64,000 nucleotides of DNA from a virus (taxonomy: Duplodnaviria; Heunggongvirae; Uroviricota; Caudoviricetes), in IMG/VR virus record IMGVR_UViG_3300042997_001281, positions 117,394 through 181,393 of that record; one strand, 5' to 3'. Position numbers and translations under genes: made by a program. This document shows positions 47,019-64,000 of the stretch, piece by piece (the first letter of the stretch is position 1; every line of letters starts with the position of its first letter). The notes under the pieces were generated by a model, which was not told the origin of the DNA, did no database searches, and saw only the letters and a list, made by a program, of their open reading frames with translations.

Positions 47019-47233
47019 CCGTAAAAAAAGGAAACACGACAGAAGAACAAAATGAGTTCCTACTTCTTGAGCAAAGAAAAGTTAAGGCAATGGAAAAAAT
47101 TGCCAACTCTTTAGATGCACTAACCGTTTGGTTTGAAGAGGTTGATAAAAAAGAATGGAGTGATAGAATTCAATTTTATCTTTCTGAGTGGCACGATACC
47201 ACAAAACCGAAAGACCCAACCATAAATGGATAA
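47015..47233 (+). CDS. Hypothetical protein
   Basis: 72-aa helical ORF coupled on both sides. Confidence 0.5.
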   Translation: MTVKKGNTTEEQNEFLLLEQRKVKAMEKIANSLDALTVWFEEVDKKEWSDRIQFYLSEWHDTTKPKDPTING

Positions 47234-48638
47234 GAAACTTGGTGTCATAGTCCCATATAGAGACCGTTATGAACATCTACAAATGTTTAAACAATCAATT
47301 ATACCTTACTTAAAAAATAAAGGAATTGATTTTGAGTTAATTGTAGTTGAACAGGACGATTCTTCTGCATTCAATAGAGGTAAATTATTGAATGTGGGAT
47401 TTTTGTATGCCAAGAAAATTAAATGTGATTATGTTGTTTTCCACGATGTAGACATGTTACCAGTTGATGTTGATTATTCGTATTCTGACATACCAATTCA
47501 AATGGCAACAAACTTTATTGGTGAAACAAATAGGGTAATCTTTGATGGTTACTTCGGTGGGGTAACAATGTTTCCTATTGATTCATTCGAACATATAAAT
47601 GGGTATTCAAATGATTATTGGGGATGGGGTTACGAAGATGATGATTTACTTTTTAGATGTAAAGTAAATGGAGTTCCACTCGACACAAAGAAAATTGAAA
47701 TGAAGGGTGGGAATGTTGCATCTTTAAAATTTAATGGTGTTGATGCATATGTTAAGGGTAACAACTTCTTCAAACAAAGAGAGGAGATGACAATATTCAT
47801 TTCATTCTACCCCGATGAACTAGTTTGTGACTTCGAGGAGAAAAGTGATAAGTATTCATTATTTACCATACCCGGTTATGATTTCACAATTACATATAAC
47901 TCATACTCAAGATACACAGTGGAAATTTTTGATGGAGGTAGAAATATCATATATCAATATTCAAATATAAAAACAAATTATAGAACCAATATTGCGGTAA
48001 CCATTAACCCAACAGATAAGATAATTAAATTTTATCAGGATGGGGATTTGGTTTCACAAGACAAGTTCACCAAATTATACGAGTACACAAAGGAACCACA
48101 TTTTTATTTAGGTGTTGGTAATCCAAATAGAACCCGAGAAAACAATTATTATAGAGGATTAATTAGTTCATTTGCGGTCTTCGATAAAGAATTATCATAT
48201 GCTGAGATAAGGGAAATATCTGACAATCATTATTTTGGTTTAACTCAAAGTTTTGGAAGATATACATCTGATTATGCATTGAAACTTTATTATGATTCAA
48301 AATTCATTAAAGGTTATAAACTTATGGATTTATCTGGTAATGGAAACGATGGGGAAATCATTAATTGTGAGATTGTTGGTAACACCTATGATGAATTCAA
48401 AACAATTGATGTACCATTTAGAAGACAATCAACATTCAAATTATTAACCCACGAAGAAAATGGTTTTGTTAAAGATGGTTGGAGAAGTGACATGACGAGG
48501 TTTAACCAATTAAGATTTTACAATGAAGTAATGAAAGGTTATCGAAACATAAAGGAAGATGGTTTATCCACTTGTAAGTACATTCAACATAGTGTTGCGA
48601 ATGTTGAGAATCAAACAAATATTGTAGTAGGAATATGA
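47226..48638 (+). CDS. GT7 (beta-1,4-galactosyltransferase-like) glycosyltransferase with internal LamG domain
   Basis: VIVPYRDR, FNRGKLLNVG, FHDVD, YFGGV, NGYSN.YWGWGYEDDD; LamG from LKFNG to NCEIV; GT7 tail resumes RRQSTF..H..DGL. Confidence 0.85.
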   Translation: MDKKLGVIVPYRDRYEHLQMFKQSIIPYLKNKGIDFELIVVEQDDSSAFNRGKLLNVGFLYAKKIKCDYVVFHDVDMLPVDVDYSYSDIPIQMATNFIGETNRVIFDGYFGGVTMFPIDSFEHINGYSNDYWGWGYEDDDLLFRCKVNGVPLDTKKIEMKGGNVASLKFNGVDAYVKGNNFFKQREEMTIFISFYPDELVCDFEEKSDKYSLFTIPGYDFTITYNSYSRYTVEIFDGGRNIIYQYSNIKTNYRTNIAVTINPTDKIIKFYQDGDLVSQDKFTKLYEYTKEPHFYLGVGNPNRTRENNYYRGLISSFAVFDKELSYAEIREISDNHYFGLTQSFGRYTSDYALKLYYDSKFIKGYKLMDLSGNGNDGEIINCEIVGNTYDEFKTIDVPFRRQSTFKLLTHEENGFVKDGWRSDMTRFNQLRFYNEVMKGYRNIKEDGLSTCKYIQHSVANVENQTNIVVGI

Positions 48639-50065
48639 CACATAAATTAGGGATTTGTATCCCATATAGAAACAGACAAGAACACCTCGATAGGTTGGTA
48701 CCACATTTAAGTAACTACCTAAATGAAAGAGGTATTGAACATAAATTTTACGTTGGTCATCAGGTGGATGATAATCTATTCAATAGGGGTATGATGAAAA
48801 ACATTGCGGCCAAATTCGCATTTGACGATGGTTGTGATTATATTGCATGGCACGATGTTGATATGTTAGCATATACCAAACATATGGATACGTTACCCGA
48901 TTATTCATATCCGAAAGACAACCCAATCCATATCGCAACAAAACTATCCAAATATCAATATGGATTAGGTTATGACCAATATTTCGGAGGGGTTGTTTTG
49001 TTTACCAAAGAACATGTTGAAAGAACAAATGGATATTCAAACGAGTATTGGGATTGGGGTCAAGAGGATGATGATTTGTTTTGGAGATGTTATTTTGAAA
49101 ATTACACCACCGGTAAAATACACAAAAAAATAAACAACAAACGAGTTGCCAAATTTAATGGTGAAAACTCATCGATTAAAATATTATCTAACAGGGAAAG
49201 TAATTCTTGTTTACATAATGACCATACAATAACAATCATTTTTAATGCCGAGCAACAAGACGAAAAGACACCAATTTGGTTAGTTGGGGATAAGAATAGA
49301 AAATTTATAGAATACCCATTATTGAGAAAAGATGGTAGTGGTACTTGGGGGATTTCATTTAATAATTCAAGAGCAGTAACCGCAACTCTATTCGATAAGT
49401 CAAATCAATTCAATTACAATTGGGCCAAGAGATTTGAAAATCTATGGACACAAGTGACTCTTTCTTACAATAGTGAGGAGAAAAATATGTACTTTTACAT
49501 AAACGATGAATTAATCTCTCAGATGGACGGTATTAAACAAAACATACCATTTCCCATATCTGGAGATTTAAGGTCACACACATCAATTAAACCGTTTCTA
49601 ATTGGATTCTGCGGTCAATCAAACACCCACTATAAAGGTAAAATTGCGGACATAAAGATATATAACAGATTTTTTGATGATATCACTAAAATGGAAGATG
49701 ATGTAGATAGTTTAGTTTTAGATTGTAACTTTACAAAGGAAATAGATGGAGACATAAATAACATTTTATTTGAGGATGAGGATATTGAAATTATTGAAAA
49801 TATTATCCCATACAGAAGGGAAGGTTCATTCCAATGCCTTCAACATGAAGATGAGGGATTCGTTAATGGAGGATGGGTGAAGGGTGAGACCACGGCGAGA
49901 AATGAAAAAAGATTTGTTACCGAAATGCAACAAAGAAAAATAGACTATAAAAATGATGGATTCAATCAAATTATGGACAATTTAACGATTCAAAATATTG
50001 AAGAAAATCCTTATAATTACAACAACACTAAGATAATAAACGTAAAAACAAATGGACCGAAATAA
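48635..50065 (+). CDS. Second GT7 glycosyltransferase with internal LamG domain
   Basis: IPYRNR, FNRG, WHDVD, YFGGV, NGYSNEYWDWGQEDDD; LamG AKFNG..W.QVTL..YKGKIAD; tail RREGSF..H..DGF. Confidence 0.85.
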   Translation: MTHKLGICIPYRNRQEHLDRLVPHLSNYLNERGIEHKFYVGHQVDDNLFNRGMMKNIAAKFAFDDGCDYIAWHDVDMLAYTKHMDTLPDYSYPKDNPIHIATKLSKYQYGLGYDQYFGGVVLFTKEHVERTNGYSNEYWDWGQEDDDLFWRCYFENYTTGKIHKKINNKRVAKFNGENSSIKILSNRESNSCLHNDHTITIIFNAEQQDEKTPIWLVGDKNRKFIEYPLLRKDGSGTWGISFNNSRAVTATLFDKSNQFNYNWAKRFENLWTQVTLSYNSEEKNMYFYINDELISQMDGIKQNIPFPISGDLRSHTSIKPFLIGFCGQSNTHYKGKIADIKIYNRFFDDITKMEDDVDSLVLDCNFTKEIDGDINNILFEDEDIEIIENIIPYRREGSFQCLQHEDEGFVNGGWVKGETTARNEKRFVTEMQQRKIDYKNDGFNQIMDNLTIQNIEENPYNYNNTKIINVKTNGPK

Positions 50066-51452
50066 CATAAAAGAAGAATTAAATAAGGTTGGTTGCGGGT
50101 TCTGTCTTGCGAAATGGACACAAGTAACCATACACTTACAATTGGGTAGAACACACTCATGTCACCACCCCGATACTCACGTTATCCCTTTATCCGAATT
50201 GAAAAGGAACCCCTCTGCTCTACACAATACTAAATTTAAAAAAGAGAAAAGAAAGGAAATGTTAGAGGGCGGTAGACCAACAGAATGTGCTTATTGTTGG
50301 AATGTAGAAGATAATTCAGACCAACATTCGGATAGGATATTTAAATCAGCCGAACCATGGTCATTACCACTTTTAGATGATATTAAAAAATCAGATTGGA
50401 GAGAAGATTTTAACCCTCGTTACGTTGAGGTTGCATTTTCAAACACATGTAATTTTAAATGTTCGTACTGCGGTCCGTCATTTTCATCACAGTGGGTTCA
50501 AGAAATTGAACGTCACGGAGCATACCCAACAACTACTAACTTTAATGGGTTAGATTATTTAAAGAAAGAAAATAGAATGCCATTTAAGGCAACGGAACCA
50601 AACCCATATGTTGATGCATTTTGGGAGTGGTGGCCCGAATTATATCGAGACTTAGATACTTTTAGAATCACTGGTGGTGAGCCATTATTATCTAAGGATA
50701 CATGGGGTGTTTTAGATTATATAATCGAACAAAAAGAACCAAATAGAAATCTACACTTGGCTATTAATAGTAACTTAGGTGTACCAGATAATTTAATTGA
50801 TAAACTAATTGAGAAAATCAATATAATCGAGGACCAACGAAGAGTAAAAGACTTTGTTATTTTCACCTCAGTTGATGGTTGGGGTGAACACGCCGAATAC
50901 GGTAGACACGGATTAGTGTTTAACAAATTTTGGGATAACTTAAATAAAATACTTACTAAATGTCCTACTGTGACAATTGGTATTATGAGCACCTATAATG
51001 CACTGTCAGTATTAAGTTATGATAAATTGATTAGTGGTGTTTACGACCTTAAAAAGGAATACGCATCAACACAAAGAGCATGGACCACACCAGTTTCTTT
51101 AGATTCATCATTCTTGAGGTATCCGTTACATCAAACTGTACAAGTTTTACCACATAATTTTAGTGGTTTAGTAAAGGGTCATGGGGATTTAATGGAATCA
51201 TATGAAGAAGTATTTCATGTTGGGTTAAATAAAGAGGGGGTTAGTTACGGTTTTACACAAATGGAAATCCCAAAAATTAAGAGAATTTATGATTGGATGA
51301 TTTCACCACAGGATGATTATCGTCAAATGATAAATCGTAGAGATTTTTATAGGTTCTTTAATGAACATGATATAAGAAGAGGAACTAACTTCTGTAAAAC
51401 ATTCCCCGAATATGAGGAGTTTTATAATTTTTGTAAAACAATTGTGATTTAA
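50052..51452 (+). CDS. Radical SAM protein with N-terminal twitch/SPASM-like cluster
   Basis: CNFKCSYC, ITGGEPLL; N-terminal C.AKW..SCHH..CAYCW. Confidence 0.85.
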   Translation: MDRNNIKEELNKVGCGFCLAKWTQVTIHLQLGRTHSCHHPDTHVIPLSELKRNPSALHNTKFKKEKRKEMLEGGRPTECAYCWNVEDNSDQHSDRIFKSAEPWSLPLLDDIKKSDWREDFNPRYVEVAFSNTCNFKCSYCGPSFSSQWVQEIERHGAYPTTTNFNGLDYLKKENRMPFKATEPNPYVDAFWEWWPELYRDLDTFRITGGEPLLSKDTWGVLDYIIEQKEPNRNLHLAINSNLGVPDNLIDKLIEKINIIEDQRRVKDFVIFTSVDGWGEHAEYGRHGLVFNKFWDNLNKILTKCPTVTIGIMSTYNALSVLSYDKLISGVYDLKKEYASTQRAWTTPVSLDSSFLRYPLHQTVQVLPHNFSGLVKGHGDLMESYEEVFHVGLNKEGVSYGFTQMEIPKIKRIYDWMISPQDDYRQMINRRDFYRFFNEHDIRRGTNFCKTFPEYEEFYNFCKTIVI

Positions 51453-52882
51453 TGAAAGATATTGAGATAAATGTCGCATATTCCGAAATTTTGGTTTATA
51501 CGGAAGACAATAGAATTCTATACCCCAACTCAAATGTTGCGAAGTACGATATCCACCCATGGCACACCGCTAAATTTGATAAAATACATGAAATTGAGGA
51601 GGAACTTGGTATTAAATTTCCATATAGATTAAAGTCCGAAGATTCTAATGAGTTAAGGATGTATTTGTGTAAATTTTATAGTCAAAATTTTGAAGGTTTA
51701 CTGGATAACACATATGGTAATTTTAAAGTATTTTCTTTAGATGAAATATACGAAACCGATAAAAGTTTTGTTTACCCAATTGTGTTATATAACAATGACT
51801 TATTTTTAAAATACCCAACAATAGATTTAGATGATAAATTAGTTGAATGTATTAAAAATAAAAGAGCAAGATTGTGTATTATACAGGCAACAGAGGGATT
51901 TTTTGGACAAAATATGAACGATTATGTATGGGTTTCAAATTTATCAACTAAATATGATTTCAATAAAGATGATGTAATCGTTATCACGTCTAATTTCTTG
52001 ACTACTAATAGATATTCAAAATTACTTAATGACGGGTTAATCCGAGACAATTTTACTATACACCCATACTCATATTTTCAACACAGTCTTTGGTTTCATG
52101 ACGGTGGTAGAATTTTAATGGATGAAACAAAAGAAAAAATGAGAGAAAACTTTAATTGGTATTTACAAAATAATAAAACCACTAAAAAAGAATTTCATTT
52201 TTTATCTTTTAATAGGGTTACTAAACCACATAGACTGGTTATGTTTGCTGAATTATCTTCAAATGAAAAATTAATAGGTAAATCAATTAAATCTTTAGGT
52301 GCTTCACAAAATAAGTTCCACCATGAATTTTTTAACATATTAAATGCAACTTTAGGCGAGTATTATGTTCATTCAAAGAAAAGACTATTAGATTTTTATA
52401 ACACATACGATTCATCAAAACATTACGTGTACGATGAAAATGATTTAGAAAATAACAAAGCGGCCAATTTGAGTAAAGGAGCGCATAGTACCACTTTTGT
52501 AAATGTGGTTACAGAATCTCTAATTGATGAAGGTTCAATATTTTATTCTGAAAAGACATACAAACCAATGTATACGTGTCAACCATTCATTATTGTTGGT
52601 AACCCATACTCAATTAAAAAATTAAAAGAGTTGGGGTTCAAAACATTTGACAAATGGTGGGATGAAAGTTATGACAATGAGACCAATTATACGAAAAGAA
52701 TGGACATGATTACCAGTGTAATGGAGGAAATTGCATCGTGGGATATGGATAAATGTTATCAGGTAACCCAAGAAATGGAAGAAGTATTAATTCATAATTT
52801 TAATAATATGATTAGTAATCATGAGGTTATTAAACTTTTCACAGTACTTGAAAACAAAAAGATATCAAATAGATTAATATGA
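51452..52882 (+). CDS. Putative GT-B-like glycosyltransferase (exostosin/GT10-like C-terminus)
   Basis: FLSFNR..PHR, VNVVTES, YSEKTYKP..PFIIVG..LKELGFKTFDKWWDESYD. Confidence 0.5.
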   Translation: MKDIEINVAYSEILVYTEDNRILYPNSNVAKYDIHPWHTAKFDKIHEIEEELGIKFPYRLKSEDSNELRMYLCKFYSQNFEGLLDNTYGNFKVFSLDEIYETDKSFVYPIVLYNNDLFLKYPTIDLDDKLVECIKNKRARLCIIQATEGFFGQNMNDYVWVSNLSTKYDFNKDDVIVITSNFLTTNRYSKLLNDGLIRDNFTIHPYSYFQHSLWFHDGGRILMDETKEKMRENFNWYLQNNKTTKKEFHFLSFNRVTKPHRLVMFAELSSNEKLIGKSIKSLGASQNKFHHEFFNILNATLGEYYVHSKKRLLDFYNTYDSSKHYVYDENDLENNKAANLSKGAHSTTFVNVVTESLIDEGSIFYSEKTYKPMYTCQPFIIVGNPYSIKKLKELGFKTFDKWWDESYDNETNYTKRMDMITSVMEEIASWDMDKCYQVTQEMEEVLIHNFNNMISNHEVIKLFTVLENKKISNRLI

Positions 52883-53667
52883 AAACTTTAGGTGTTTGTG
52901 GTGATAGTTTTATGTCTGCAATTTCATTTAATGAAAATGATTTAGATAATGGTTACGGTAAACATTTTACTGAGTTACTGGGAGAAAAACTTGGGTGGAA
53001 TGTCGTAACCTATGCTCGAGGTGGATGTAGTAATCAAACTATTCGTTTACAAATCGATGAGATTATAAAACACAAACCCGATTTGGTGATTATTGGTCTA
53101 ACCTCACCAGATAGATTTGAATACCCAATATACGACTTAACGACTGAAGATTATTTTGATAAATTTAAAGAGGAATTTAAAACAAATATGTACGAACCAA
53201 ACAATGGACTATATAACATAGATTATGTTGGGTTTCCCGATAAGAGTTCGGAACATGGGGGATTCGGAGTGATAACACCTAAGATGATTAGTGAAACATT
53301 AAATAACTTTTTTTGGGGTAACCAATCTAAGGAGACACTTAACAAATCTGAGGTTAGAATTTTAGAAGAATGGTTTGATAGATTCTACGACTTCAATTGG
53401 AAAGCACAACAGGACTCTTGGATTGTTGCCAATGGGTTAAGAAAGTTGTTAGATAACGGAATTGAATTCTATTGTATAAACACAAATCTATATTCAAATG
53501 AGTTTGAATTTTTTGGTGATAGAATGATAATGTTAGATTCTAAACTAAACCCGTGGACATATCGGGGAAGTGACCCATCAATTAAATATAGATTCCACAC
53601 CACATTAGAGTATCAGGAACAATTATCAAACAATTGGTTTGAACACATAAATAAAAAATTAATATAA
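52879..53667 (+). CDS. SGNH/GDSL-like hydrolase or acyltransferase
   Basis: VCGDSF, ARGGCSN, C-terminal H. Confidence 0.55.
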   Translation: MKTLGVCGDSFMSAISFNENDLDNGYGKHFTELLGEKLGWNVVTYARGGCSNQTIRLQIDEIIKHKPDLVIIGLTSPDRFEYPIYDLTTEDYFDKFKEEFKTNMYEPNNGLYNIDYVGFPDKSSEHGGFGVITPKMISETLNNFFWGNQSKETLNKSEVRILEEWFDRFYDFNWKAQQDSWIVANGLRKLLDNGIEFYCINTNLYSNEFEFFGDRMIMLDSKLNPWTYRGSDPSIKYRFHTTLEYQEQLSNNWFEHINKKLI

Positions 53668-54398
53668 TGAATAAGAAAACACTAATTGCCAGTGGATGTA
53701 GTTTCACATTTGAACCATGGAATTGGCCAACATTTGTATGTAATGAAATGGATTACAATTTGGTTAATGTTGGGATGGCATCACAGGGTAACGGATTAAT
53801 TTCTAAAAAAGTAATATACCAAGTAGATAAATTATTAGAGACACACAAACCTGAAGACATTATTGTTGGTGTCATGTGGAGTGGTATTGACCGACACGAT
53901 TTTTACACTGAAGATTCAAAAAGAATATCAAACATTAATGGATGGATTGAAAACCCAACTAATGTTGTTGACGGTAGAAAAAATTGGGTTATAACTAACT
54001 ATATGTGGGACATACCCCAAGCAAAGATTTGGTACGAAAATCTACATACATATGTTGGTTCAATGTTAATGACCATGCAAAATATATTAATGGTGCAATG
54101 GTATTTGGAACGTAAAGGTATCAAATATTTTATGTCATCATATTTGGATATTTTCCATGCAAATGGCGCAGACACTTTGATATCACATCCCGAAGTAAAA
54201 TATCTATTTGATATGGTTGATTTTAGTAAGTTCCTCCCCGTGAGTGGTTGTCATGAATGGGTTAAAGAGAACTACAACGAATTAGGATTTGATGGACATG
54301 TTGGTTATGAACATAGAGGTATACACCCAACTGAGTTTGGACATAAAAAGTTTTCGGAAGAAGTAATTGTTCCGTATTTAAAAAATAACGTATTATGA
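53667..54398 (+). CDS. SGNH/GDSL-like hydrolase or acyltransferase
   Basis: ASGCSFT, NVGMASQGN, HPTEFGH. Confidence 0.55.
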   Translation: MNKKTLIASGCSFTFEPWNWPTFVCNEMDYNLVNVGMASQGNGLISKKVIYQVDKLLETHKPEDIIVGVMWSGIDRHDFYTEDSKRISNINGWIENPTNVVDGRKNWVITNYMWDIPQAKIWYENLHTYVGSMLMTMQNILMVQWYLERKGIKYFMSSYLDIFHANGADTLISHPEVKYLFDMVDFSKFLPVSGCHEWVKENYNELGFDGHVGYEHRGIHPTEFGHKKFSEEVIVPYLKNNVL

Positions 54399-55534: not shown

Positions 55535-57204
55535 TGTACGTAATTGGTATATCATCATATTATCATGACTCATCTGTCTGTTTGTTCAAAAATGGGGAGT
55601 TGGTTTTTGCATGTGAAGAAGAAAAATTCACAGGGGTAAAACATGATTATAGATTTCCAGTTAATACGTTACAATACATCTACAAAAAATATAACATCAA
55701 AAAGAAAGATGTTGAAATGATTTGTTATTATGAAGACCCAAAAATTAAACTTGAGAGAGTTAAAAATACATTCTTCAGAAATTTTATTGAGCGTCCAATA
55801 TATGTTGCCAAAACCCTAATAAGAACCAAATACAATTATTGGTCATTAGAAAGAGAGTTGAGAAAGTTATCAGACAATATCTTCTACTCAAAACATCACG
55901 ATTCACATTTATATTATTCATATTACACATCACCATTTAAAGATTGTGTTGTCTTATCGGTAGACGGTGTTGGTGAGAAGGAAACATTATCGGCCGCATA
56001 TGTGAATAAAGATTCATTTAAGATTATACCACTGGCGGTTTACCCACATTCAATTGGTTTATTCTATTCTGCAATGACATCGTTCCTTGGATTTAAACCA
56101 AACGAAGGTGAATATAAAATGATGGGACTTGCATCTTACGGGGACCCCGAACCATATAGAGATAAGATTGATAAGTTGGTGATACACAATTGTGTGTCGT
56201 TAAAAACAAATATGATTTATTTCACATGGGATAGAGATGACCTAATGTTCAACGAAGATTTGATTGAATTAATGGGTGTTGAAAATAGATTACCCGAAGA
56301 AGATATAACACAGGAACATAAAAACATTGCAGCATCCGTTCAAGAAAAGTATGAACACGTATTATTTGAGATTTTAAAGGATGTTCACTTATTCAGTGAT
56401 TCAAAAAATCTTGCATTGGCCGGTGGATGCGCATACAACGGAACCGCAAATGGGAAAATAAAAGAAAATACTGACTTTAAAAACGTGTGGGTCCCACCAG
56501 CACCATCTGACGCGGGTTCTTGTATTGGTGCATGTTTAAATTACTTTCATCAAAAGAAAACACCCGTTAGGGTTCACACGAATCCTTTTTTAGGTCCATC
56601 ATACTCAAATGAGGAAATTCTTGACGTGTTAAAAAACACAAATGGGATAACTTATAAAAGATATGAAACGATTACATCAGTTCATGATAAAATTGCGATG
56701 GAATTAAAAAGAAACAAGATAGTTGGGTGGTTTCAAGGTAAGATTGAATTTGGTTCTAGAGCGTTAGGTCATAGGTCAATATTGGCGAACCCGACTTCAC
56801 CTAATATGAAGGATAGAATCAACAAAGTAATCAAAAAAAGAGAAGGGTTTAGACCCTTTGCCCCAATGGTATTGTTTGAATCACAAAAGAAATACTTTAA
56901 AAGTGGTGATTTCATTCCCTATATGAACCAAGTGGTAGAGGTGGAAGAAAAATATATCGATAAACTACCGGCGGTGGTTCATGTAGATGGGACGGCAAGA
57001 ATTCAATCCGTTATACCGTACAATGACATATACCACCTATTAAAAAAGTTTGAAATCATAACAGGGTATCCAATATTACTTAACACATCTTTTAATATTA
57101 AAGATAAAACTATGGTACTCACCCCACAAGATGCGGTAGAGACATTTTTGGATACCGAAATAGATATATTGGTGATTAATAACTACATAATAACAAAAAA
57201 ATGA
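55534..57204 (+). CDS. Carbamoyltransferase (NodU/CmcH/TobZ family)
   Basis: YHDSS, EEEKFTGVKH, HHDSH, DGVGE, GEYKMMGLA, AGGCAYN, EFGSRALGHRSILA, REGFRPFAP, HVDGTARIQ, LNTSFN. Confidence 0.93.
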   Translation: MYVIGISSYYHDSSVCLFKNGELVFACEEEKFTGVKHDYRFPVNTLQYIYKKYNIKKKDVEMICYYEDPKIKLERVKNTFFRNFIERPIYVAKTLIRTKYNYWSLERELRKLSDNIFYSKHHDSHLYYSYYTSPFKDCVVLSVDGVGEKETLSAAYVNKDSFKIIPLAVYPHSIGLFYSAMTSFLGFKPNEGEYKMMGLASYGDPEPYRDKIDKLVIHNCVSLKTNMIYFTWDRDDLMFNEDLIELMGVENRLPEEDITQEHKNIAASVQEKYEHVLFEILKDVHLFSDSKNLALAGGCAYNGTANGKIKENTDFKNVWVPPAPSDAGSCIGACLNYFHQKKTPVRVHTNPFLGPSYSNEEILDVLKNTNGITYKRYETITSVHDKIAMELKRNKIVGWFQGKIEFGSRALGHRSILANPTSPNMKDRINKVIKKREGFRPFAPMVLFESQKKYFKSGDFIPYMNQVVEVEEKYIDKLPAVVHVDGTARIQSVIPYNDIYHLLKKFEIITGYPILLNTSFNIKDKTMVLTPQDAVETFLDTEIDILVINNYIITKK

Positions 57205-57314
57205 AAATAATACAGTGGATTAAAGGAATTTGGTTAGACTATAAACGGAAGAAGAAATTCAGGGAAAAACTAAGGGAATTAAAGAAAAGAGACCCTTTTA
57301 CCTACAATCATTAG
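57201..57314 (+). CDS. 37-aa basic micropeptide coupled to the carbamoyltransferase; not in the ORF track
   Basis: MKIIQWIKGIWLDYKRKKKFREKLRELKKRDPFTYNH; 4-nt overlap with the upstream stop. Confidence 0.5.
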   Translation: MKIIQWIKGIWLDYKRKKKFREKLRELKKRDPFTYNH

Positions 57315-57354
57315 TTTTTTTTATTTATATTCTAATCAAAAGATATTTACATAT

Positions 57355-57633
57355 ATGGACTTAAAAGACATTTTTAATTCGTGGTTGAGTTCATTCAACC
57401 CAACAGACATTCAACGAAATATGTCCAAAGAGAGGATTGCGATTTGTGCGGAATGTCCATCATTAAATAGAAGATTAAACATAAATCAGGATTGGGCCGC
57501 GTACTGTGGAGAATGTGGATGTCCGATTAATAAAAAGGTATTCAGTATGATTCACAATTCATGTCCATTGGCAAAATGGGGTGAGGTTGATGAAAAATAC
57601 CTACCAACAAAGAAAAATACTACATTAATATAA
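57355..57633 (+). CDS. Small Cys-rich Zn-binding protein (DUF6171-like)
   Basis: RIAICAECP..CGECGCPINKK..CPLAKW. Confidence 0.6.
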   Translation: MDLKDIFNSWLSSFNPTDIQRNMSKERIAICAECPSLNRRLNINQDWAAYCGECGCPINKKVFSMIHNSCPLAKWGEVDEKYLPTKKNTTLI

Positions 57634-59546
57634 TGAGAGGAGTTTTAGTAGGAACTGATTACATACAGGATACGGACGGTAGTTTCAAAATACTTGAAAT
57701 TAATACCAACGTTGGATTTGTTTTTTCTGATTGTAGAGAATACATTAATGAGGTTGCGTTTGATAATTTTTTGATTGACAATGAGATAACAAAAATTACC
57801 TACCTTCTAAATAAAGAATTACCGGGTCAGTATGGTGATTTGGATGAAAACAATAACGTTAATTACGGTACATTATATACATTTCAAGATTTTTTATTTG
57901 ATAAATGTGCTGATAAGGGAATTTCATTACACATTGAGGTCATATCCCCAAGGGCAATCACTGTTCCATATATTGAAAACTCCCCAAATGAATTAATTTT
58001 AAGACAGGTTTATGATACAACCGCGTTAGTTGATTCAACATACGCAAAGGACAACTTTGAGTTTTTAAAATTAATGTACGATACGGAGTCAACTTCAATA
58101 CCTAAAACATATTTTATAAATGGGACACTGGGGTTTGACACCATCGGTAGTGATATTCGAGACAATGGGGTTCATCCTAATTTTATTATAAAGGAAAGAT
58201 ACCCAACAACAAATTATGGGATATACCCAAAAGTTTTTAAAATAGACACAATTGAAGAACTAGAAACTTTAAAAACTAATTTACCTGAAAATACACTATT
58301 ACAAGAATATATCGTTAACACGGATAATTTGGTTTTAGGTAAACAGGTAACATATAGAACCATCGATGTTTTATATGGCGATACTCTTAGTATTTTAAAC
58401 CTATTCCAACCATTTGAACAAACAAACCCTTGCCCATTATCAGTTTCAGTAGATTACGACGATAACAACGAGATACAATATTGGGAAAGACCTGTTTATT
58501 TACAAAAACACCAAAACTCACTTATATATAATGTTTTATATCACTTAGATGATAATAGTTTTATTTTAAAATCTGACGGTACATTTGTTAATGGAACAAC
58601 CATACAAATTGATGACGATGTTAAATCAGCAAATTTGTATGAGTTACCATTGACCGGTGTTACCACATCATGGTCGGCAACAACTGAAAATGTTTTAACA
58701 GGTTCAACGATAGGTTTTTCAAAAGTTAAAAACATTTCAAAATATGAAAATGTATTGATTTGGGTTAGGAGAATTGAATTGGAAGACGGTATTATTTTTT
58801 CTGACGTACCGAACTCATCAATTGCGGTGGACAATAATGGCATAACAAAATATAAAAAATATCAATTCTTAGAGGTTGGAGATGGTGTTGTTTTATATGA
58901 TATGGATACAGAAAGTTTTGTTATAAAAAATATTTTGAACATTAAATTCCAATTCACAAAACAAAATGTATCGACACTCGACATAGAAGATATAGATAAC
59001 TATATGGTTGTCGAAGAAGAAAACAATCAACCAAGATTTGCGTCAGTACAATCAAACGCTGGTGTTTGTGCTTCTTTTTATCAACCATCTTACGGTAACT
59101 TTCCTTCACAACCCAACCCCCCTAATCAAAATAATTTAAGAAATGGTTTTGGTGGTAATTGTAACGATTTACCTCCGATGGTTGAATGGGGTGAAAGGGG
59201 CCAACCGAATTGTAGTTGGTCTTGTACTCAACCATGTGAGCCATTTCCACCAGGGTATGACCCAATGAGTATCCCAATGACCCCACAATGGTACGTTTAT
59301 TTTTATGGGGCAAACAGAAGTGATTGTGAAAGACAAATGCCATACAGCGGTCCCCTTCCAACTTATACGTGTAATTATTGTGATTATTTTTGTTGTGCTG
59401 GTGAGTTGACAACTCAAACATTTGGACCAGTTGATTGTTCAATAACTTCCTATCCACCACAATATGTTTTAAGATACGACCCCCCCTCAGGCCCGGGAGA
59501 ATTTTTTACTTGTGAAACGAGTAACACAAAAGAACATGGAGCGTAA
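57633..59546 (+). CDS. Permuted ATP-grasp-like domain + degenerate Hint-like domain + Cys/Pro-rich C-terminal region
   Basis: D..KILEINTN, NFIIKERYP, LLQEYI; Hint-like aa 304-475 ending VQSN; last 162 aa contain 12 Cys. Confidence 0.5.
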   Translation: MRGVLVGTDYIQDTDGSFKILEINTNVGFVFSDCREYINEVAFDNFLIDNEITKITYLLNKELPGQYGDLDENNNVNYGTLYTFQDFLFDKCADKGISLHIEVISPRAITVPYIENSPNELILRQVYDTTALVDSTYAKDNFEFLKLMYDTESTSIPKTYFINGTLGFDTIGSDIRDNGVHPNFIIKERYPTTNYGIYPKVFKIDTIEELETLKTNLPENTLLQEYIVNTDNLVLGKQVTYRTIDVLYGDTLSILNLFQPFEQTNPCPLSVSVDYDDNNEIQYWERPVYLQKHQNSLIYNVLYHLDDNSFILKSDGTFVNGTTIQIDDDVKSANLYELPLTGVTTSWSATTENVLTGSTIGFSKVKNISKYENVLIWVRRIELEDGIIFSDVPNSSIAVDNNGITKYKKYQFLEVGDGVVLYDMDTESFVIKNILNIKFQFTKQNVSTLDIEDIDNYMVVEEENNQPRFASVQSNAGVCASFYQPSYGNFPSQPNPPNQNNLRNGFGGNCNDLPPMVEWGERGQPNCSWSCTQPCEPFPPGYDPMSIPMTPQWYVYFYGANRSDCERQMPYSGPLPTYTCNYCDYFCCAGELTTQTFGPVDCSITSYPPQYVLRYDPPSGPGEFFTCETSNTKEHGA

Positions 59547-59564
59547 AATTAAAAAATTAAAACT

Positions 59565-59714
59565 ATGAGTACAGAAGTAAACAAAAACAAACTATATACC
59601 GCTCAAGAATATAAAATGTTCTTGAAAAAGGTTTCAGAACCTAAAAAGGTAATTTTAAAGAATTTAACGACACAAATTGTTAATGCAATTAAACTTAAAC
59701 ATCTTGGAGAGTAA
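59565..59714 (+). CDS. 49-aa basic peptide; not in the ORF track
   Basis: MSTEVNKNKLYTAQEYKMFLKKVSEPKKVILKNLTTQIVNAIKLKHLGE with A-rich leader. Confidence 0.45.
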   Translation: MSTEVNKNKLYTAQEYKMFLKKVSEPKKVILKNLTTQIVNAIKLKHLGE

Positions 59715-60171
59715 GCCAATTTGATTCTTTAAAGCCCATTCTCGTAAAAAAAGTTTGGGCTTTTTTATGCCATTTATCCACGTAAAGGTGAACATCGGTG
59801 TAACCTTCCTTAGATAATATATCCATCACCATACAAACATAAGTTGTACTATCACATAACTCTTTGTTATGTTTGGTTTTATCCACAAACACATTATATA
59901 TGTATATATGTGGTTCAGGAAGATGTTTTTTTGAAACCCACGTATGTCCCACAACCTCACCATTCAGATAAAATAAGAACAGTCTATCACCATAATCCAT
60001 TCTTAATTCGGTTTCTTGTATGGTAAACATCATATCCCATGTGTATTGGGAATTAAAATTGTCAATTGTTTTTTGGATATCCGAGTGATTCGGTTCTAGT
60101 ATTTCTTCCACAACTAATTGTGTATTTTCACTATAAATTCTGTTTTGAATGTTTAGACTATAAGGGACCAT
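59695..60171 (-). CDS. GNAT-family acetyltransferase
   Basis: YLNGEVVGH, IYIYNVFVD, LYVDKWHKKAQTFFTRMGF. Confidence 0.7.
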   Translation of the reverse strand: MVPYSLNIQNRIYSENTQLVVEEILEPNHSDIQKTIDNFNSQYTWDMMFTIQETELRMDYGDRLFLFYLNGEVVGHTWVSKKHLPEPHIYIYNVFVDKTKHNKELCDSTTYVCMVMDILSKEGYTDVHLYVDKWHKKAQTFFTRMGFKESNWLTLQDV

Positions 60172-60267: not shown

Positions 60268-63200
60268 ATGAGAATATTTGACGCAGACGTAACGGGGTCG
60301 TTACACGTATCGGGTTCATCAGAATTAAAAGGTAACTTGGTTGTTAGTGGTTCACAAACTATTACAGGTTCTTTGACTGTTGATGGAAACACCAAGTTCG
60401 GAGACCAATTAAGTGATAATCATAATTTTACTGGTAGTGTTAACATTTCCGGCTCACATACATTAACGGGTTCTCTAAATCTTTTAGGAAATCAATTTGT
60501 AAGTGGTTCAGTTTATATTCTTAATGATTTAATTGTACACGGTTCATCATCGGTACTTTACTTGACCGCATCACAACTTGCAGTTAGTGAATCATACATT
60601 AGTGTAAACGTTTTTGAACCGTTAGAGAGATTCGGAGGTATTAAAGTATACGATTCGGGTTCATCTAATGCGACTGCATCTCTTACATGGGATAGTGAAA
60701 AAAATCATTGGGTTTACACTAACACGGTCGACTCCATGTATAGTGGTGGTATGTTAATTTCAGGTCCAAGAAACACAGGTTCTCTTGGTGATGAAGTTGG
60801 TACCATAAATAATAGAGTAACAAAAGGTCAAGGTGGTGACCACATCACCTCTTCAAATATTACAGATACGGGTACAATCGTATCAATCAATAGTAATTCT
60901 GAAATTACAGGTTCATTAATTGTAACCAACGGTTTATCGGGTTCATTAGGTTATTCATACCTTATTAATGTACCAACATTAGTATCGGGTTCATCTCAAA
61001 TTTCTTATAGTGGATTGACGGGAATACCTTCTAATATCATTAGTGGTTCCGCTCAGATATATTCTCTTGGTTTCCTAACAGGTTACACAGATACAAATAC
61101 ATTTACAACTGGTGCAACGTTTAACACCGGAGATGGTGTCATCACGTTTACAAAAAACGATGGTGGAACATACACCGTTGACATTGATGGAAGATTCCAA
61201 CCCGCTGGTTCATATCTAACAGGATACACCGAAACGGATACATTTGATAATGTAACAGACAGAGGTTCGGTAACAACAAATACAATCGAAGTTGGTGGAT
61301 TAACAACAAACGGTGACATCCAATTTGGACCTGTTGCTGATAATAATGTTAATTACTCAATTAAGAGTGGTGGACAAATTAATATCCACTCAAATAACCA
61401 AGGTACCGCCGACCAATTCTTTAGTAATTTAGTTTTAAAGGCGGGTGATGGAAGCACACAAAGTGTTTTCAATATTGGTGGAAGTAACGCATCAACACCT
61501 AACCAAGGATTATGGTATACATTTGGTGGAAGTGAATACTTCCGTTTAAGTAATAATGGTACAACAAGATTCAATGCATATTCAACAAATGGTTTCGTTA
61601 AGTTTATTAACTCAGATGGTACATTAGGTGTTGACACAAACACATATTTAACATCAACATCACTTAATGGTTATGCAACTACAGGTTACGTACAAACACA
61701 AATTACTAACCTAATTGATTCGTCACCATCAACATTAGATACCTTAAATGAATTGGCAGCGGCGTTAGGGGATGACCCTAACTTCGCAACAACAGTCGCA
61801 ACATCAATTGGAAACAAAGTTTCTAAGAGTGGCGATACCATGACTGGTAACCTTAGTATCTTTAAGAATAATACAACACTTACATTAGGTCAAATTAACG
61901 TCTCAACCGGATTTACAACAATTGAAATGTATGCCGGTGATGGGGGTGCATTTAATGGGTACCTAATTAGATATAATAAGGATTCAAGTTTTGACCAATT
62001 AGAGTTCATCGATGGTGGTGGTGTTCCAAGAATTTTCTTTGAAAATGGTGGTATACTAAATGCCGCGACAATAAAAAAAATAGGTGGACTTTCAACGCAG
62101 TTCTTAAAGGCAGACGGTAGTGTTGATTCGAACACTTATTTAACCGCCCACCCTTCAGTAAGCGCTGCAGGTTCATCAAACAATTCAGGAAGAACATATA
62201 TCCAAGACATCTTATTAGATGGTTTTGGTCATATAACGGGAATCACAACTGCAACTGAAACCGTAACAGATACTAATGATTTTATTAGTGATGTTACTTT
62301 CGATGGTACTAATTTAACATTCACCGGTTCAGGTGGAGCGTTTAGTAGTCCGGTTGATATATCATCAGTTAACACCGATACAAACTATTACGTAACGGGA
62401 GCAACCTTCAATACCGGTAATGGTATTATTACGTTAACAAGAAACGATGGTGGAACTGTAACAGTTGATATTGATGGTAGATTCTTAACTTCATATAGTG
62501 AAACAGATACACTAGCAACAGTTACCGCAAGAGGTAACACAACCAACCAAGCAATCACTGTAAGTGGAATGACATCATATAATGATGTTGTAATTAGTGG
62601 TGGTACATTAACAGTTTACGAATCAGTATCGGGAGCAACCGTATTTGCGGTTGACGGTACAAATGGTAGATTGTTTGCGGTTACTGATGATTTAAGTAAT
62701 TCATTATTCTCAGTTAGTACAATTTCAGGTTTACCTGTGATTGAGGCATTTGCCGATTACCACATTGTAATGGGTAGATTTAATCAAAATGATTTCTACT
62801 TAGGAACAACAGGTGAGATTGGTATGGGATTACTACCTGTATCGGGATATAAATTGGCGGTGAGTGGAAATGTAAGAGCAACATCATTTGTTAAGAGTGG
62901 TGGAACATCATCTCAGTTCTTAAAGGCAGATGGTAGTGTTGATACAAATACATATTTAACTTCATACTTAAACTATTACACAACTGGTGTAACATTTAAC
63001 ACGGGCGACGGTGTTTTAACTTTCACAAGAACAGATGGTGGAACTTATACTGTTGATTTAGATGGAAGATATGGTGTATCAAGTACTGATTACTACACAA
63101 CAGGTGCAACCTTCAATACCAGTAACGGTGTAATTACATACACTCGTAACGACGGTGGAACATATACTGTTGATATCGATGGTAGGTTCTTAACATCGTA

Positions 63201-64000
63201 CAGTGAAATATCAACATTAGAGGATGTTGTTCAAAGAGGTAACACCTCAACAATATCAATAACTGCGGCATCATTCATTACCCAAGGAGGTAATAGTGGT
63301 GAGTTCGTTAAGGGTGATGGTTCGTTAGACACTAACACATATTTAACCGCACACCCTTCTGTATCTGCGGCAAGTTCTTCGAACAATAGTGGAAGAACAT
63401 ACATCCAAGACATACTTTTAGATTCATTTGGACATATAACAGGTATAACAACCGCAAGTGAAACAGTAACCGATACGAACTATTATGTAACGGGGGCAAC
63501 GTTCAACACAGGTGATGGGGTTATCACTTTAACAAGAAATGACGGAAACACAATCACCGTTGATATCGATGGTAGATTCTTAACCGCTCACCCTTCGGTG
63601 AGTGCGGCGAGTTCATCTGATAACTCAGGAAGAACATATATCCAAGACATCTTATTAGATTCATTTGGACATATTACAGGAATTACAACAGGTACTGAAA
63701 CGGTTGTTGATACAAATACAAATTACTATGTAACAGGAGCAACTTTCAATACAGGTAATGGTATTATTACACTTACACGTAATGACGGTAATACTGTAAC
63801 AGTTGATATCGATGGAAAGTATTCAGAATTGGGTCACACTCATGATGATAGATATCTTCCGTATGTTAAAAATGTAGAAACTTTGGGATTACCCGATGGT
63901 CGATGGTATACCATTGCGGTAAACACGGGGAGCAGAGCGGTTGGTAAATTTATTTTAAGAGACACCTCAAGTGGTAATCACCAATCAGTTGTGTTCTATG
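60268..64000 (+). CDS. Long modular tail fibre protein, 3'-truncated (over 1240 aa); not in the ORF track
   Basis: Frame open from ATG 60268 (MRIFDADVTGS); contains TLDTLNELAAALGDDPNFATT (P2/T4 fibre motif) at about 61735-61795; TATTTAT at 60237. Confidence 0.85.
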   Translation, partial: MRIFDADVTGSLHVSGSSELKGNLVVSGSQTITGSLTVDGNTKFGDQLSDNHNFTGSVNISGSHTLTGSLNLLGNQFVSGSVYILNDLIVHGSSSVLYLTASQLAVSESYISVNVFEPLERFGGIKVYDSGSSNATASLTWDSEKNHWVYTNTVDSMYSGGMLISGPRNTGSLGDEVGTINNRVTKGQGGDHITSSNITDTGTIVSINSNSEITGSLIVTNGLSGSLGYSYLINVPTLVSGSSQISYSGLTGIPSNIISGSAQIYSLGFLTGYTDTNTFTTGATFNTGDGVITFTKNDGGTYTVDIDGRFQPAGSYLTGYTETDTFDNVTDRGSVTTNTIEVGGLTTNGDIQFGPVADNNVNYSIKSGGQINIHSNNQGTADQFFSNLVLKAGDGSTQSVFNIGGSNASTPNQGLWYTFGGSEYFRLSNNGTTRFNAYSTNGFVKFINSDGTLGVDTNTYLTSTSLNGYATTGYVQTQITNLIDSSPSTLDTLNELAAALGDDPNFATTVATSIGNKVSKSGDTMTGNLSIFKNNTTLTLGQINVSTGFTTIEMYAGDGGAFNGYLIRYNKDSSFDQLEFIDGGGVPRIFFENGGILNAATIKKIGGLSTQFLKADGSVDSNTYLTAHPSVSAAGSSNNSGRTYIQDILLDGFGHITGITTATETVTDTNDFISDVTFDGTNLTFTGSGGAFSSPVDISSVNTDTNYYVTGATFNTGNGIITLTRNDGGTVTVDIDGRFLTSYSETDTLATVTARGNTTNQAITVSGMTSYNDVVISGGTLTVYESVSGATVFAVDGTNGRLFAVTDDLSNSLFSVSTISGLPVIEAFADYHIVMGRFNQNDFYLGTTGEIGMGLLPVSGYKLAVSGNVRATSFVKSGGTSSQFLKADGSVDTNTYLTSYLNYYTTGVTFNTGDGVLTFTRTDGGTYTVDLDGRYGVSSTDYYTTGATFNTSNGVITYTRNDGGTYTVDIDGRFLTSYSEISTLEDVVQRGNTSTISITAASFITQGGNSGEFVKGDGSLDTNTYLTAHPSVSAASSSNNSGRTYIQDILLDSFGHITGITTASETVTDTNYYVTGATFNTGDGVITLTRNDGNTITVDIDGRFLTAHPSVSAASSSDNSGRTYIQDILLDSFGHITGITTGTETVVDTNTNYYVTGATFNTGNGIITLTRNDGNTVTVDIDGKYSELGHTHDDRYLPYVKNVETLGLPDGRWYTIAVNTGSRAVGKFILRDTSSGNHQSVVFY
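61081..63832 (+). repeat. Interspersed internal repeat modules of the tail fibre
   Basis: Six YYxTGATFNTGxGxITxTRNDGxTxTVDIDGR units, three AHPSVSAA..GRTYIQDILLD.FGHITGITT units and three F(L/V)K.DGS.D.NTYL units, all diverged at synonymous sites. Confidence 0.85.

Follow-up and report, generated by a model that had tools for sequence, protein, structure and literature searches.

The 64,000-nucleotide stretch of viral DNA analysed here (the window; positions 117,394 to 181,393 of IMG/VR record IMGVR_UViG_3300042997_001281, one strand, 5' to 3') contains a gene for a 637-amino-acid (aa) protein in which an ATP-grasp-like domain, a Hint domain and a variable Cys-rich tail follow one another on a single chain. 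This large gene is translationally coupled to an upstream gene for a CxxC protein (ZN), is followed by a 49-aa open reading frame (ORF; PEP), and faces a gene for a GNAT acetyltransferase; all four ORFs and their coordinates (Table 1) are confirmed as the first-pass annotation of the sequence had described them. The window is part of one 310,691-bp virus record with a CheckV completeness of 93%, in which a gene for a T4-type major capsid protein (Gp23 family, E 6.5e-64) is also found, and its source is an uncultured T4-like jumbo phage. Genes in the window lie almost all on the + strand.

Table 1. Position of the three-part protein, its partners and other features within the window.
Feature	Position	Strand	Remarks
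ZN, 92-aa CxxC protein	57355-57633	+	stop overlaps start of the 637-aa ORF
637-aa ORF	57633-59546	+	
ATP-grasp-like domain, aa 1-296	57633-58520	+	
Hint domain, aa 297-475	58521-59057	+	Asn475 codon at 59055-59057, predicted cleavage point
Tail, aa 476-637 plus stop	59058-59546	+	polymorphic Pro/Tyr/Cys-rich cargo
PEP, 49-aa ORF	59565-59714	+	downstream of the 637-aa gene
GNAT acetyltransferase, 158 aa	59695-60171	-	convergent; Acetyltransf_1 PF00583, E 6e-7
Four consecutive upstream genes with a shared C-terminal motif	50052-54398	+	radical S-adenosylmethionine (SAM) enzyme, 476-aa protein, SGNH hydrolase, DUF6071
Radical SAM gene	50052-51452	+	first of the four
Two tandem paralogous genes, ~470 aa each	47226-50065	+	glycosyltransferase family 7 with Laminin_G_3/concanavalin-like domain
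38-aa micro-ORF	57201-57317	+	overlaps carbamoyltransferase stop (ATGA)
Giant repeat protein	60268-63999	+	open at window end

The 637-aa ORF belongs to no Pfam or PHROGs family, and no relative of the protein was detected by tblastn or megablast in 50,697 GenBank phage records. In metagenomes, more than 230 homologs (at least 230 clusters at 50% identity), carried on contigs of up to 337 kb, share aa 1-475 and align from residue 1; the conserved part extends in all of them to about residue 475, after which the tails vary from about 60 to more than 500 aa and in kind. A cellular collection of 185,579 species genomes gave a single match, a 5-kb contig of a metagenome-assembled genome labelled Methanobacteriota archaeon (locus L046; JABJFP010000318.1, 5,006 bp), in which the first 291 residues of a homolog stand at the contig end; the likeliest explanation is that a viral contig was binned with the assembled genome, and a hint of the host is a further possibility. 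The ESM Atlas clusters of the family are 96-100% viral, and the family is almost wholly viral and lies outside GenBank phage isolates. Conservation is given below for an alignment of 70 sequences, which are mostly 25-45% identical (down to 22%), and gene neighbourhoods for about 40 related loci that were searched for with sub-family alignments.

For aa 1-296, an AlphaFold2 model built on the 70-sequence alignment has a mean predicted local distance difference test (pLDDT) score of 92.8, and permuted ATP-grasp amide ligases account for 25 of the 25 Foldseek matches in the PDB with E up to 0.001. The matches include YjfC, YgiC, E. coli glutathionylspermidine synthetase (GspS), and eukaryotic glutathione and homoglutathione synthetases (E 5e-6 to 1e-3); the best entries are 7uk6, 5oeu, 7uk8, 2ioa and 8fbz (E 5e-6 to 3e-5, probability 1.0), and trypanothione synthetase and Cp1B are found among the weaker ones. 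VIA, a comparison independent of Foldseek, places ATP-grasp enzymes in 20 of its top 20 positions; YgiC (7uka; Z 8.7, root-mean-square deviation (rmsd) 4.3, 204 aligned residues) and GspS (2io7; Z 8.4, rmsd 4.4, 212 aligned residues) both cover residues 1 to about 292-294, and a nematode glutathione synthetase-like protein reaches Z 8.3. Among the VIA matches, the permuted enzymes are the sole group that aligns over residues 1-50, whereas classical enzymes (RimK, LysX/ArgX, TTLL and bacterial GshB) align only from about residue 52, as is expected if the first two strands, with E22-x-N24, are the permuted element; a graspetide ligase (7mgv) covers residues 52-296 only, at Z 4.9. The nearest non-viral clusters in the ESM Atlas are CP_ATPgrasp_1/2 (template-modelling (TM) score 0.56-0.57), and the commonest sub-threshold Pfam match of the family is RimK ATP-grasp (6 of the 70 members, best E 0.012), with one CP_ATPgrasp_1 match at E 0.12.

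Nine residues of the domain, namely D9, E22, N24, R124, D134, P182, N183, K187 and R242, are invariant. The fungal enzyme Cp1B is an ATP-grasp ligase for which homoglutathione synthetase and YgiC/YjfC were reported as the nearest structural homologs; its nucleotide is surrounded by R139, D141, E163 and N165, and mutants of these residues lose some or all of the activity (PMC12568646). In VIA, model residues 2-264 align with Cp1B 134-480, and on these aligned ranges D9 and E22-x-N24 are likely the counterparts of Cp1B D141, E163 and N165. The first-pass annotation had read the permuted ATP-grasp order from motifs near the N-terminus, and Foldseek, VIA and the ESM Atlas agree with it; at the level of the structural model, a permuted ATP-grasp carboxylate-amine ligase fold of the GspS/YgiC/eukaryotic glutathione synthetase type is established for aa 1-296, and ligase activity is likely. 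The phage domain shares its fold and circular permutation, with the E-x-N strand first, with GspS (2io7), the peptide-spermidine ligases YgiC/YjfC (7uka/7uk6), the eukaryotic glutathione synthetases, Cp1B (9cjn) and the bacterial CP_ATPgrasp_1/2, and the acidic/Asn set is invariant in the phage family; however, it has no detectable sequence similarity to these enzymes, is about 100-200 residues shorter without an N-terminal substrate domain, is fused to a Hint domain, and is predicted to carry a separate 49-aa microprotein over the back of its sheet. By modelled fold, and not by sequence, the ligase belongs to the permuted group, as a divergent and shortened member in two pieces; its chemistry would by analogy consist of the activation of a carboxylate as an acyl-phosphate, followed by the attack of an amine (PMC12568646).

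The full-length AlphaFold2 model has pLDDT of at least 90 in 390 of its 637 residues; for most of aa 1-475 the block means are at about 77 or higher, apart from a low loop at ~61-80. Foldseek matches its middle part to hedgehog (1at0, TM by target 0.82, E 4.9e-8; 6tyy, TM 0.84) and to dozens of mini-inteins and bacterial intein-like (BIL) domains (E 5e-8 to 1e-4), and the family profile, searched against PDB sequences, matches inteins (E 7e-7; KlbA intein 2jmz, E ~8e-7), a BIL domain and hedgehog. The Hint assignment originally proposed for aa 304-475 (nt 58542-59057) is thereby upheld, and the motifs quoted for it occur at the residues given. In the alignment, block A follows the pattern x-L-D-D-x-S-x-I-L-x-x-D-G...G-D-x-V-K, block B reads DG....D, and the C-terminal blocks are recognisable as D-V-E-x-x-D-x-F/Y-L-T ... 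I-x-H-N. Hint position 1 is variable (H, K, I, N, T and others), with no Cys or Ser conserved family-wide, and TxxH is absent from the whole family; H474 (92%) and N475 (98%) are conserved, and conservation collapses directly after the Asn. The loss of Cys1 and TxxH with retention of the terminal Asn, noticed at first in the one protein, is accordingly found across the family, and an Asn boundary is shared by the homologs. The loss of the penultimate His, claimed together with it, holds for a clade of nine sequences, consisting of the 637-aa protein, in which the domain ends Q-S-N (S474-N475), and its eight closest relatives, but not for the other 84 of the 93 pattern-matching homologs, which keep HN.

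Because Cys1 and TxxH are lost and the terminal (H/S)N is kept, the Hint domain of the family appears to be stripped to the needs of Asn cyclisation. Judged from its sequence, the 637-aa protein is not an intein, since it has no Cys1, no TxxH and no +1 nucleophile; the residue after the terminal Asn is Ala476, and the first Cys of the homologs comes 1-5 residues on. The Npu and Ssp DnaE inteins end in ...ASN, and Npu DnaE is very fast, so the Ser ahead of the Asn is no argument for inactivity. The hedgehog C-terminal autoprocessing domain, which includes the best structural matches of the phage Hint, and the BUBL BIL domains of Tetrahymena (6y75, 6tmm) are precedents for Hint self-processing that frees or transfers an attached polypeptide with no splicing. 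Hedgehog and BUBL use an N-terminal Cys thioester, whereas the phage Hint has no N-terminal Cys and has kept the C-terminal Asn alone. PDZ matches within the Hint segment of 2 of the 70 members (E 1.4e-4) are attractive in that C-termini are what PDZ domains bind, but they were not relied on, as a GLGF-type loop was found in none of the members.

In most of the related loci a 46-50-aa ORF lies directly 3' of the large gene (none was picked up in L008, L011, L012, L023 and L034), and in nearly all of them a 90-110-aa protein with the pattern C-x2-C...C-x2-C-G-C...C-P adjoins, either upstream of the large gene or just past the microprotein; the large gene, the microprotein and the zinc ribbon form a conserved three-gene cassette. 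The first-pass annotation had pointed to the 49-aa ORF, the Zn protein and the GNAT gene as neighbours, and the first two are conserved partners; the convergent GNAT arrangement, by contrast, recurs in the close relatives L010, L047 and L048 and is absent from the more distant loci examined, and its membership of the system is doubtful because synteny is limited in this way. In ZN, residues C31, C34, C51, C54, C56 and C70 are invariant and the chain matches phrog_13558 (E 7e-8); its orthologs match DUF6171 in 10 of 18 cases (best E 3.5e-5) and the TFIIB zinc ribbon 1pft (E 0.005), and on these matches ZN is taken to be a zinc ribbon related to DUF6171.

In the microprotein alignment N6, K43, K45 and H46 are invariant, the N-terminal part reading M.TE.NKN and the C-terminal part K.KH plus 1-3 residues. 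Co-folding of aa 1-478 with the microprotein gave an ipSAE of 0.87 (0.86, 0.88 and 0.87 in the single runs), and the best of three controls gave 0.00. Of solved complexes, 58 of 80 came up to the ipSAE mark, and of mismatched pairs 2 of 110; these counts are rough since own alignments were used. The runs agree in at least 96% of contacts, with a partner pLDDT of at least 86, and the microprotein is predicted to bind the ligase-Hint module. Its predicted contacts comprise residues 8, 10, 12, 18, 20, 23, 241, 243, 245 and 247, further residues within 259-291, and Hint residues 437-441; since they alternate with the invariant D9, E22, N24 and R242, the microprotein would lie on the sheet face opposite the active site, as a predicted clamp subunit that covers the back of the truncated ligase and ties it to the Hint domain. 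A role as ligase substrate was also considered for the microprotein and set aside in favour of the subunit, as the predicted pose lies away from the invariant residues and touches none of them.

The tail begins right after the Asn, as had been noted, and contains 12 Cys and a single Lys (K633), six residues past the last Cys. Its AlphaFold2 pLDDT is below 50, and the ESM Atlas yielded no usable feature match for it (TM <0.31 only). Within the clade all 12 Cys are aligned and several motifs are fixed, with tail identities of 49-85% compared with 78-100% for the core. Relative to strain L047, there are 2 nucleotide differences in codons 1-475 and 55 in codons 476-637; the first changed codon of the tail is 476, and the tail differences, which include triple-nucleotide codon changes and 9 synonymous ones, are concentrated in codons 476-543. 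Relative to the more distant L048, nonsynonymous and synonymous codons stand at 47:25 in the tail and at 37:84 in the core. Since multi-nucleotide and synonymous changes set in at codon 476, the change looks like the replacement of cargo, or of an allele, at the junction and not like point-mutation drift, so that the segment past the Asn, for which hypervariability had been anticipated, is both hypervariable and swapped between strains. Hypermutation by a diversity-generating retroelement was rejected, as the 310,691-bp genome gave no RVT_1 match and held no second copy of the tail DNA or template repeat.

Across the family, the ATP-grasp and Hint module is kept alongside tails as different as 60-aa Cys-rich peptides, tandem Hint domains and a 500-aa region, which argues that the ligase would recognise a constant feature of the system and not the tail sequence. 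In P0233, P0245 and P0261, the only members with true PT-HINT domains downstream, two canonical Hint domains (CF.AGT...HN; Pfam PT-HINT and Intein_splicing) take the place of the Cys-rich tail, and the chain ends HNK or HNKF; in P0245 the first Cys comes immediately after the HN of the degenerate Hint. The tail of P0018 (672 aa) ends, after a Cys-rich part, in a cupredoxin-like copper-site pattern (...C.FHGSM...) that has no match in Pfam. A Lys is found no more than 12 residues past the last Cys in 88 of 97 tails and is the sole Lys in 52 of the 97.

Another kind of tail is Cys-rich and then continues into Peptidase_S74 (PF13884; for example, in P0080, P0106, P0115 and P0123), an intramolecular chaperone typical of phage fibres and spikes that stands at the tail end of many homologs and that the Pfam search did not find in the 637-aa protein. 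Such tails invite the explanation that the protein is an uncleaved structural component of the virion or fibre, in which a dead Hint domain serves as scaffold, the Cys-rich tail as a receptor-binding or adhesive tip, and the ATP-grasp fold as a structural or attachment domain. The hypervariability of the tail on a fixed Cys frame resembles receptor-binding tips, the large gene adjoins a giant repeat protein and itself lies downstream of virion structural genes, and the clade of the 637-aa protein has no penultimate His, all of which would suit a structural part. Nevertheless, the near-invariance of N475 and H474 at the exact end of a module that has lost its other Hint apparatus is hard to explain without bond chemistry, the invariant D9, E22, N24, K187 and R242 argue for a working enzyme, and the neighbours in most related loci are enzymes and not structural genes; a purely structural role is thus regarded as unlikely. 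If the cargo is released by self-cleavage instead, the Hint domain and S74 would bracket the Cys-rich segment of the S74-bearing homologs with two self-cleaving modules, and the conserved Lys that is found directly ahead of the S74 Ser would come to lie at the new C-terminus.

The nearest known logic for a constant module, a Hint domain and a variable cargo is that of the polymorphic toxins of bacteria, in which a HINT autopeptidase is placed ahead of the C-terminal toxin (PMC3482391), together with BIL and hedgehog self-processing; the polymorphic-toxin-like character suggested by the first-pass annotation fits in this respect. Pretoxin-HINT (PF07591) and A-type BIL domains likewise stand directly before a variable C-terminal cargo, end in HN, and are expected to perform self-cleavage and not splicing (PMC3482391); the BIL structures 2lwy and 6y75 rank with the best matches of the phage Hint in fold and in sequence, and PF07591 itself leaves the 637-aa protein unmatched and gives sub-threshold matches in 2 of the 70 members (best E 5.4e-5). 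The phage family differs from both in its missing position-1 Cys/Ser and TxxH, and its constant part is an enzyme fold instead of a secretion or filament module. It is conceivable that the Hint domain frees the tail as a toxin, signal or other host-directed effector, and that the ATP-grasp domain acts on a separate target of host or phage, such as a small molecule or host protein, without modifying its own product. The exact replacement of cargo at the junction in near-identical strains and the unrelated kinds of tail in different members are what such an effector would lead one to expect. However, in this phage setting no toxin domain or adjacent immunity gene was recognised in the loci examined, where no dedicated search for either was made; the conserved partners are a microprotein predicted to be bound to the ligase and a Zn ribbon; and the terminal Lys kept across unrelated cargos points to a shared chemical handle. 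An effector of this type, released and left unmodified, is accordingly rated as rather improbable.

The cassette closes an island of genes that modify sugars and proteins, which includes two GT7/Laminin_G_3 glycosyltransferases, a radical SAM enzyme, an SGNH hydrolase, DUF6071, a UDP-glucose dehydrogenase-like gene and a carbamoyltransferase. Several products in the window share a type of C-terminal ending: the radical SAM enzyme ends in KTIVI, the 476-aa protein in SNRLI, the SGNH hydrolase in NKKLI, DUF6071 in KNNVL and ZN in NTTLI. Among the 269 distinct neighbour ORFs of the related loci, 120 have two hydrophobic residues at their end, usually as K-x-x-K-[KTS]-[LI]-[ILF], compared with 23 of 236 ORFs genome-wide in the phage of the window (Fisher p 4e-19), and the products tagged in this way include several 2-oxoglutarate (2OG)-Fe(II) oxygenases. 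An origin of the ending as a by-product of gene overlap was rejected, since coupled genes elsewhere in the genome seldom end so (5 of 82, compared with 6 of 13 in the island; p 6e-4), with a nucleotide-level component being possible. Since the enzymes that resemble the ligase most in structure act on C-terminal carboxylates of peptides, the endings are candidate substrates of the ligase or candidate docking tags. The four consecutive tagged genes upstream are candidate accessory or tailoring enzymes. Locus L009, which encodes the tandem-Hint member P0245, keeps a 46-aa microprotein and six tagged genes in a run, among them three for 2OG-Fe(II) oxygenases and one for a SET-domain protein.

The presence of an enzyme and a Cys-rich peptide on one chain, next to enzymes of tailoring types that a common C-terminal motif could dock, also recalls the maturation of ribosomally synthesised and post-translationally modified peptides. 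In a version acting in cis, the ATP-grasp domain would form intramolecular ester, amide or head-to-tail bonds in the tail before or after its release by the Hint domain, as in graspetides or circular bacteriocins, with the freed N-terminus and the Lys near the C-terminus as possible nucleophiles, and the tagged neighbours (2OG-Fe(II) oxygenases, SGNH hydrolase and radical SAM enzyme) would tailor the product. Yet graspetide ligases are of the classical RimK type and the phage domain is of the permuted GspS type; the module is also kept with folded-domain tails (tandem Hints, a cupredoxin-like end and a 500-aa region) that a sequence-specific macrocyclase would not accept; and no conserved leader-like segment follows the Asn in the homologs. 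Maturation of this kind is considered very unlikely.

The account that we favour, at slightly better than even confidence, is that the 637-aa protein forms the core of a phage system, widespread among viral metagenomes, and combines a self-releasing, polymorphic Cys-rich cargo with an ATP-dependent amide ligase; we infer both the cleavage and the ligation. Asn475 would cyclise to a succinimide and cut the bond between N475 and A476, as in the C-terminal cleavage of inteins and BIL domains, thereby freeing the 162-aa tail with a new alpha-amine. The complex of ligase and microprotein would then activate the C-terminal carboxylate of a peptide as an acyl-phosphate and join it to an amine, in the manner of GspS, YgiC/YjfC, glutathione synthetase and Cp1B. 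The best candidates for the amine would be the conserved terminal Lys of the cargo or its new N-terminus, and those for the carboxylate the C-termini of the type K-[KTS]-hydrophobic-hydrophobic on ZN and on neighbouring enzymes, or the C-terminus of the cargo itself; any specific pair of substrates is held with far less confidence than the general scheme. The Cys-rich product may act outside the reducing cytoplasm, either on the virion or after lysis. A more specific proposal, which must be called improbable as it stands, is that the cassette is a phage protein-conjugation system with ubiquitin-like logic and unrelated parts, in which the Hint domain frees the Cys-rich peptide and the ATP-grasp-microprotein complex then joins it, through its terminal Lys or new N-terminus, to the tagged C-termini of ZN and/or neighbouring enzymes, or closes it head to tail.

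Several observations weigh against cargo release coupled to ligation. With regard to the ligase, aa 1-300 have no Pfam family (GSP_synth, GSH_synth_ATP and CP_ATPgrasp are unmatched), and the N-domain profile finds no match among PDB sequences even at E 10; the VIA Z scores of 8-9 are modestly above the background of 7-8 stated for the tool, the Foldseek TM by query is 0.4-0.46 with a high rmsd, and the N-terminal substrate-binding region of GspS and glutathione synthetase is missing. With regard to cleavage, the clade of the 637-aa protein has Ser and not His ahead of the Asn, A476 offers no nucleophile at +1, and the phage protein lacks the upstream steps to which many inteins couple the cyclisation of Asn. 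Moreover, tagged genes are mostly translationally coupled (median gap 0 versus 42 nt) and their codons are A/T-rich, so part of the ending signal could arise at the nucleotide level, and the predicted microprotein pose, on the face away from the active site, would say nothing about the substrate.

Other features of the window were recorded alongside the cassette. The two tandem paralogous glycosyltransferases each comprise the N and C parts of family 7 together with a Laminin_G_3/concanavalin-like domain, and the radical SAM gene that comes after them completes a combination unusual for a phage. The 38-aa micro-ORF at the carbamoyltransferase stop reads ...WIK...RKK.F..KL.ELKKRDPFTYNH; a micro-ORF with an identical C-terminus is also found 3' of the carbamoyltransferase in L010 and L011, and it is probably a real, unannotated microprotein linked to that enzyme. 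Past the GNAT gene, the giant protein spans at least 1244 aa in the window and 3359-4107 aa in the relatives L010 and L048, and is composed of ~30-aa repeat modules (...TGATFNTG.G.IT.TRNDGGT.TVDIDGRF...) and Ser/Gly-rich stretches that give it a fibre-like look; one segment, at about 61084-61233, shares only 83% identity with strain L047, with flanks at 97-100%. On the + strand, TATTTATA is the reverse complement of the T4 late-promoter octamer TATAAATA, and 12 of the 14 matches in the window have this orientation, with sites that include 3692, 6647, 13837, 15879, 19790, 27515, 36875, 45034 and 57322. Nine copies sit 5-35 nt 5' of + strand start codons, one of them 26 nt ahead of the start of ZN. 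The 14 matches do not exceed what chance would give (11.2 expected), but their placement is biased; TATTTATA is possibly a motif of promoters or of initiation regions.

Hint domains are well understood, and so are ATP-grasp ligases, but no report of their fusion was found, in phages or elsewhere; the literature consulted, which included a 2021 comparative review of jumbo phages, likewise yielded no description of an ATP-grasp fusion with a Hint, intein-like or pretoxin domain, or of the cassette. If the chemistry proposed here is true, large aquatic phages would make small disulfide-rich peptides from a self-cleaving precursor and would exchange them at a defined junction in the way that bacteria exchange toxin tips; a dedicated ligase, the microprotein bound to it and tailoring enzymes with tags would accompany this. 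Such a system would provide new natural peptide scaffolds and possibly tools for protein ligation, in the form of a cleavage-only Hint domain and a compact two-piece ligase, and it would offer access to an unexplored level of interaction between phage and host or between phages. The more specific conjugation scheme, if true, would represent an ATP-grasp-driven, self-priming ligation of a peptide or protein that is undescribed in viruses.

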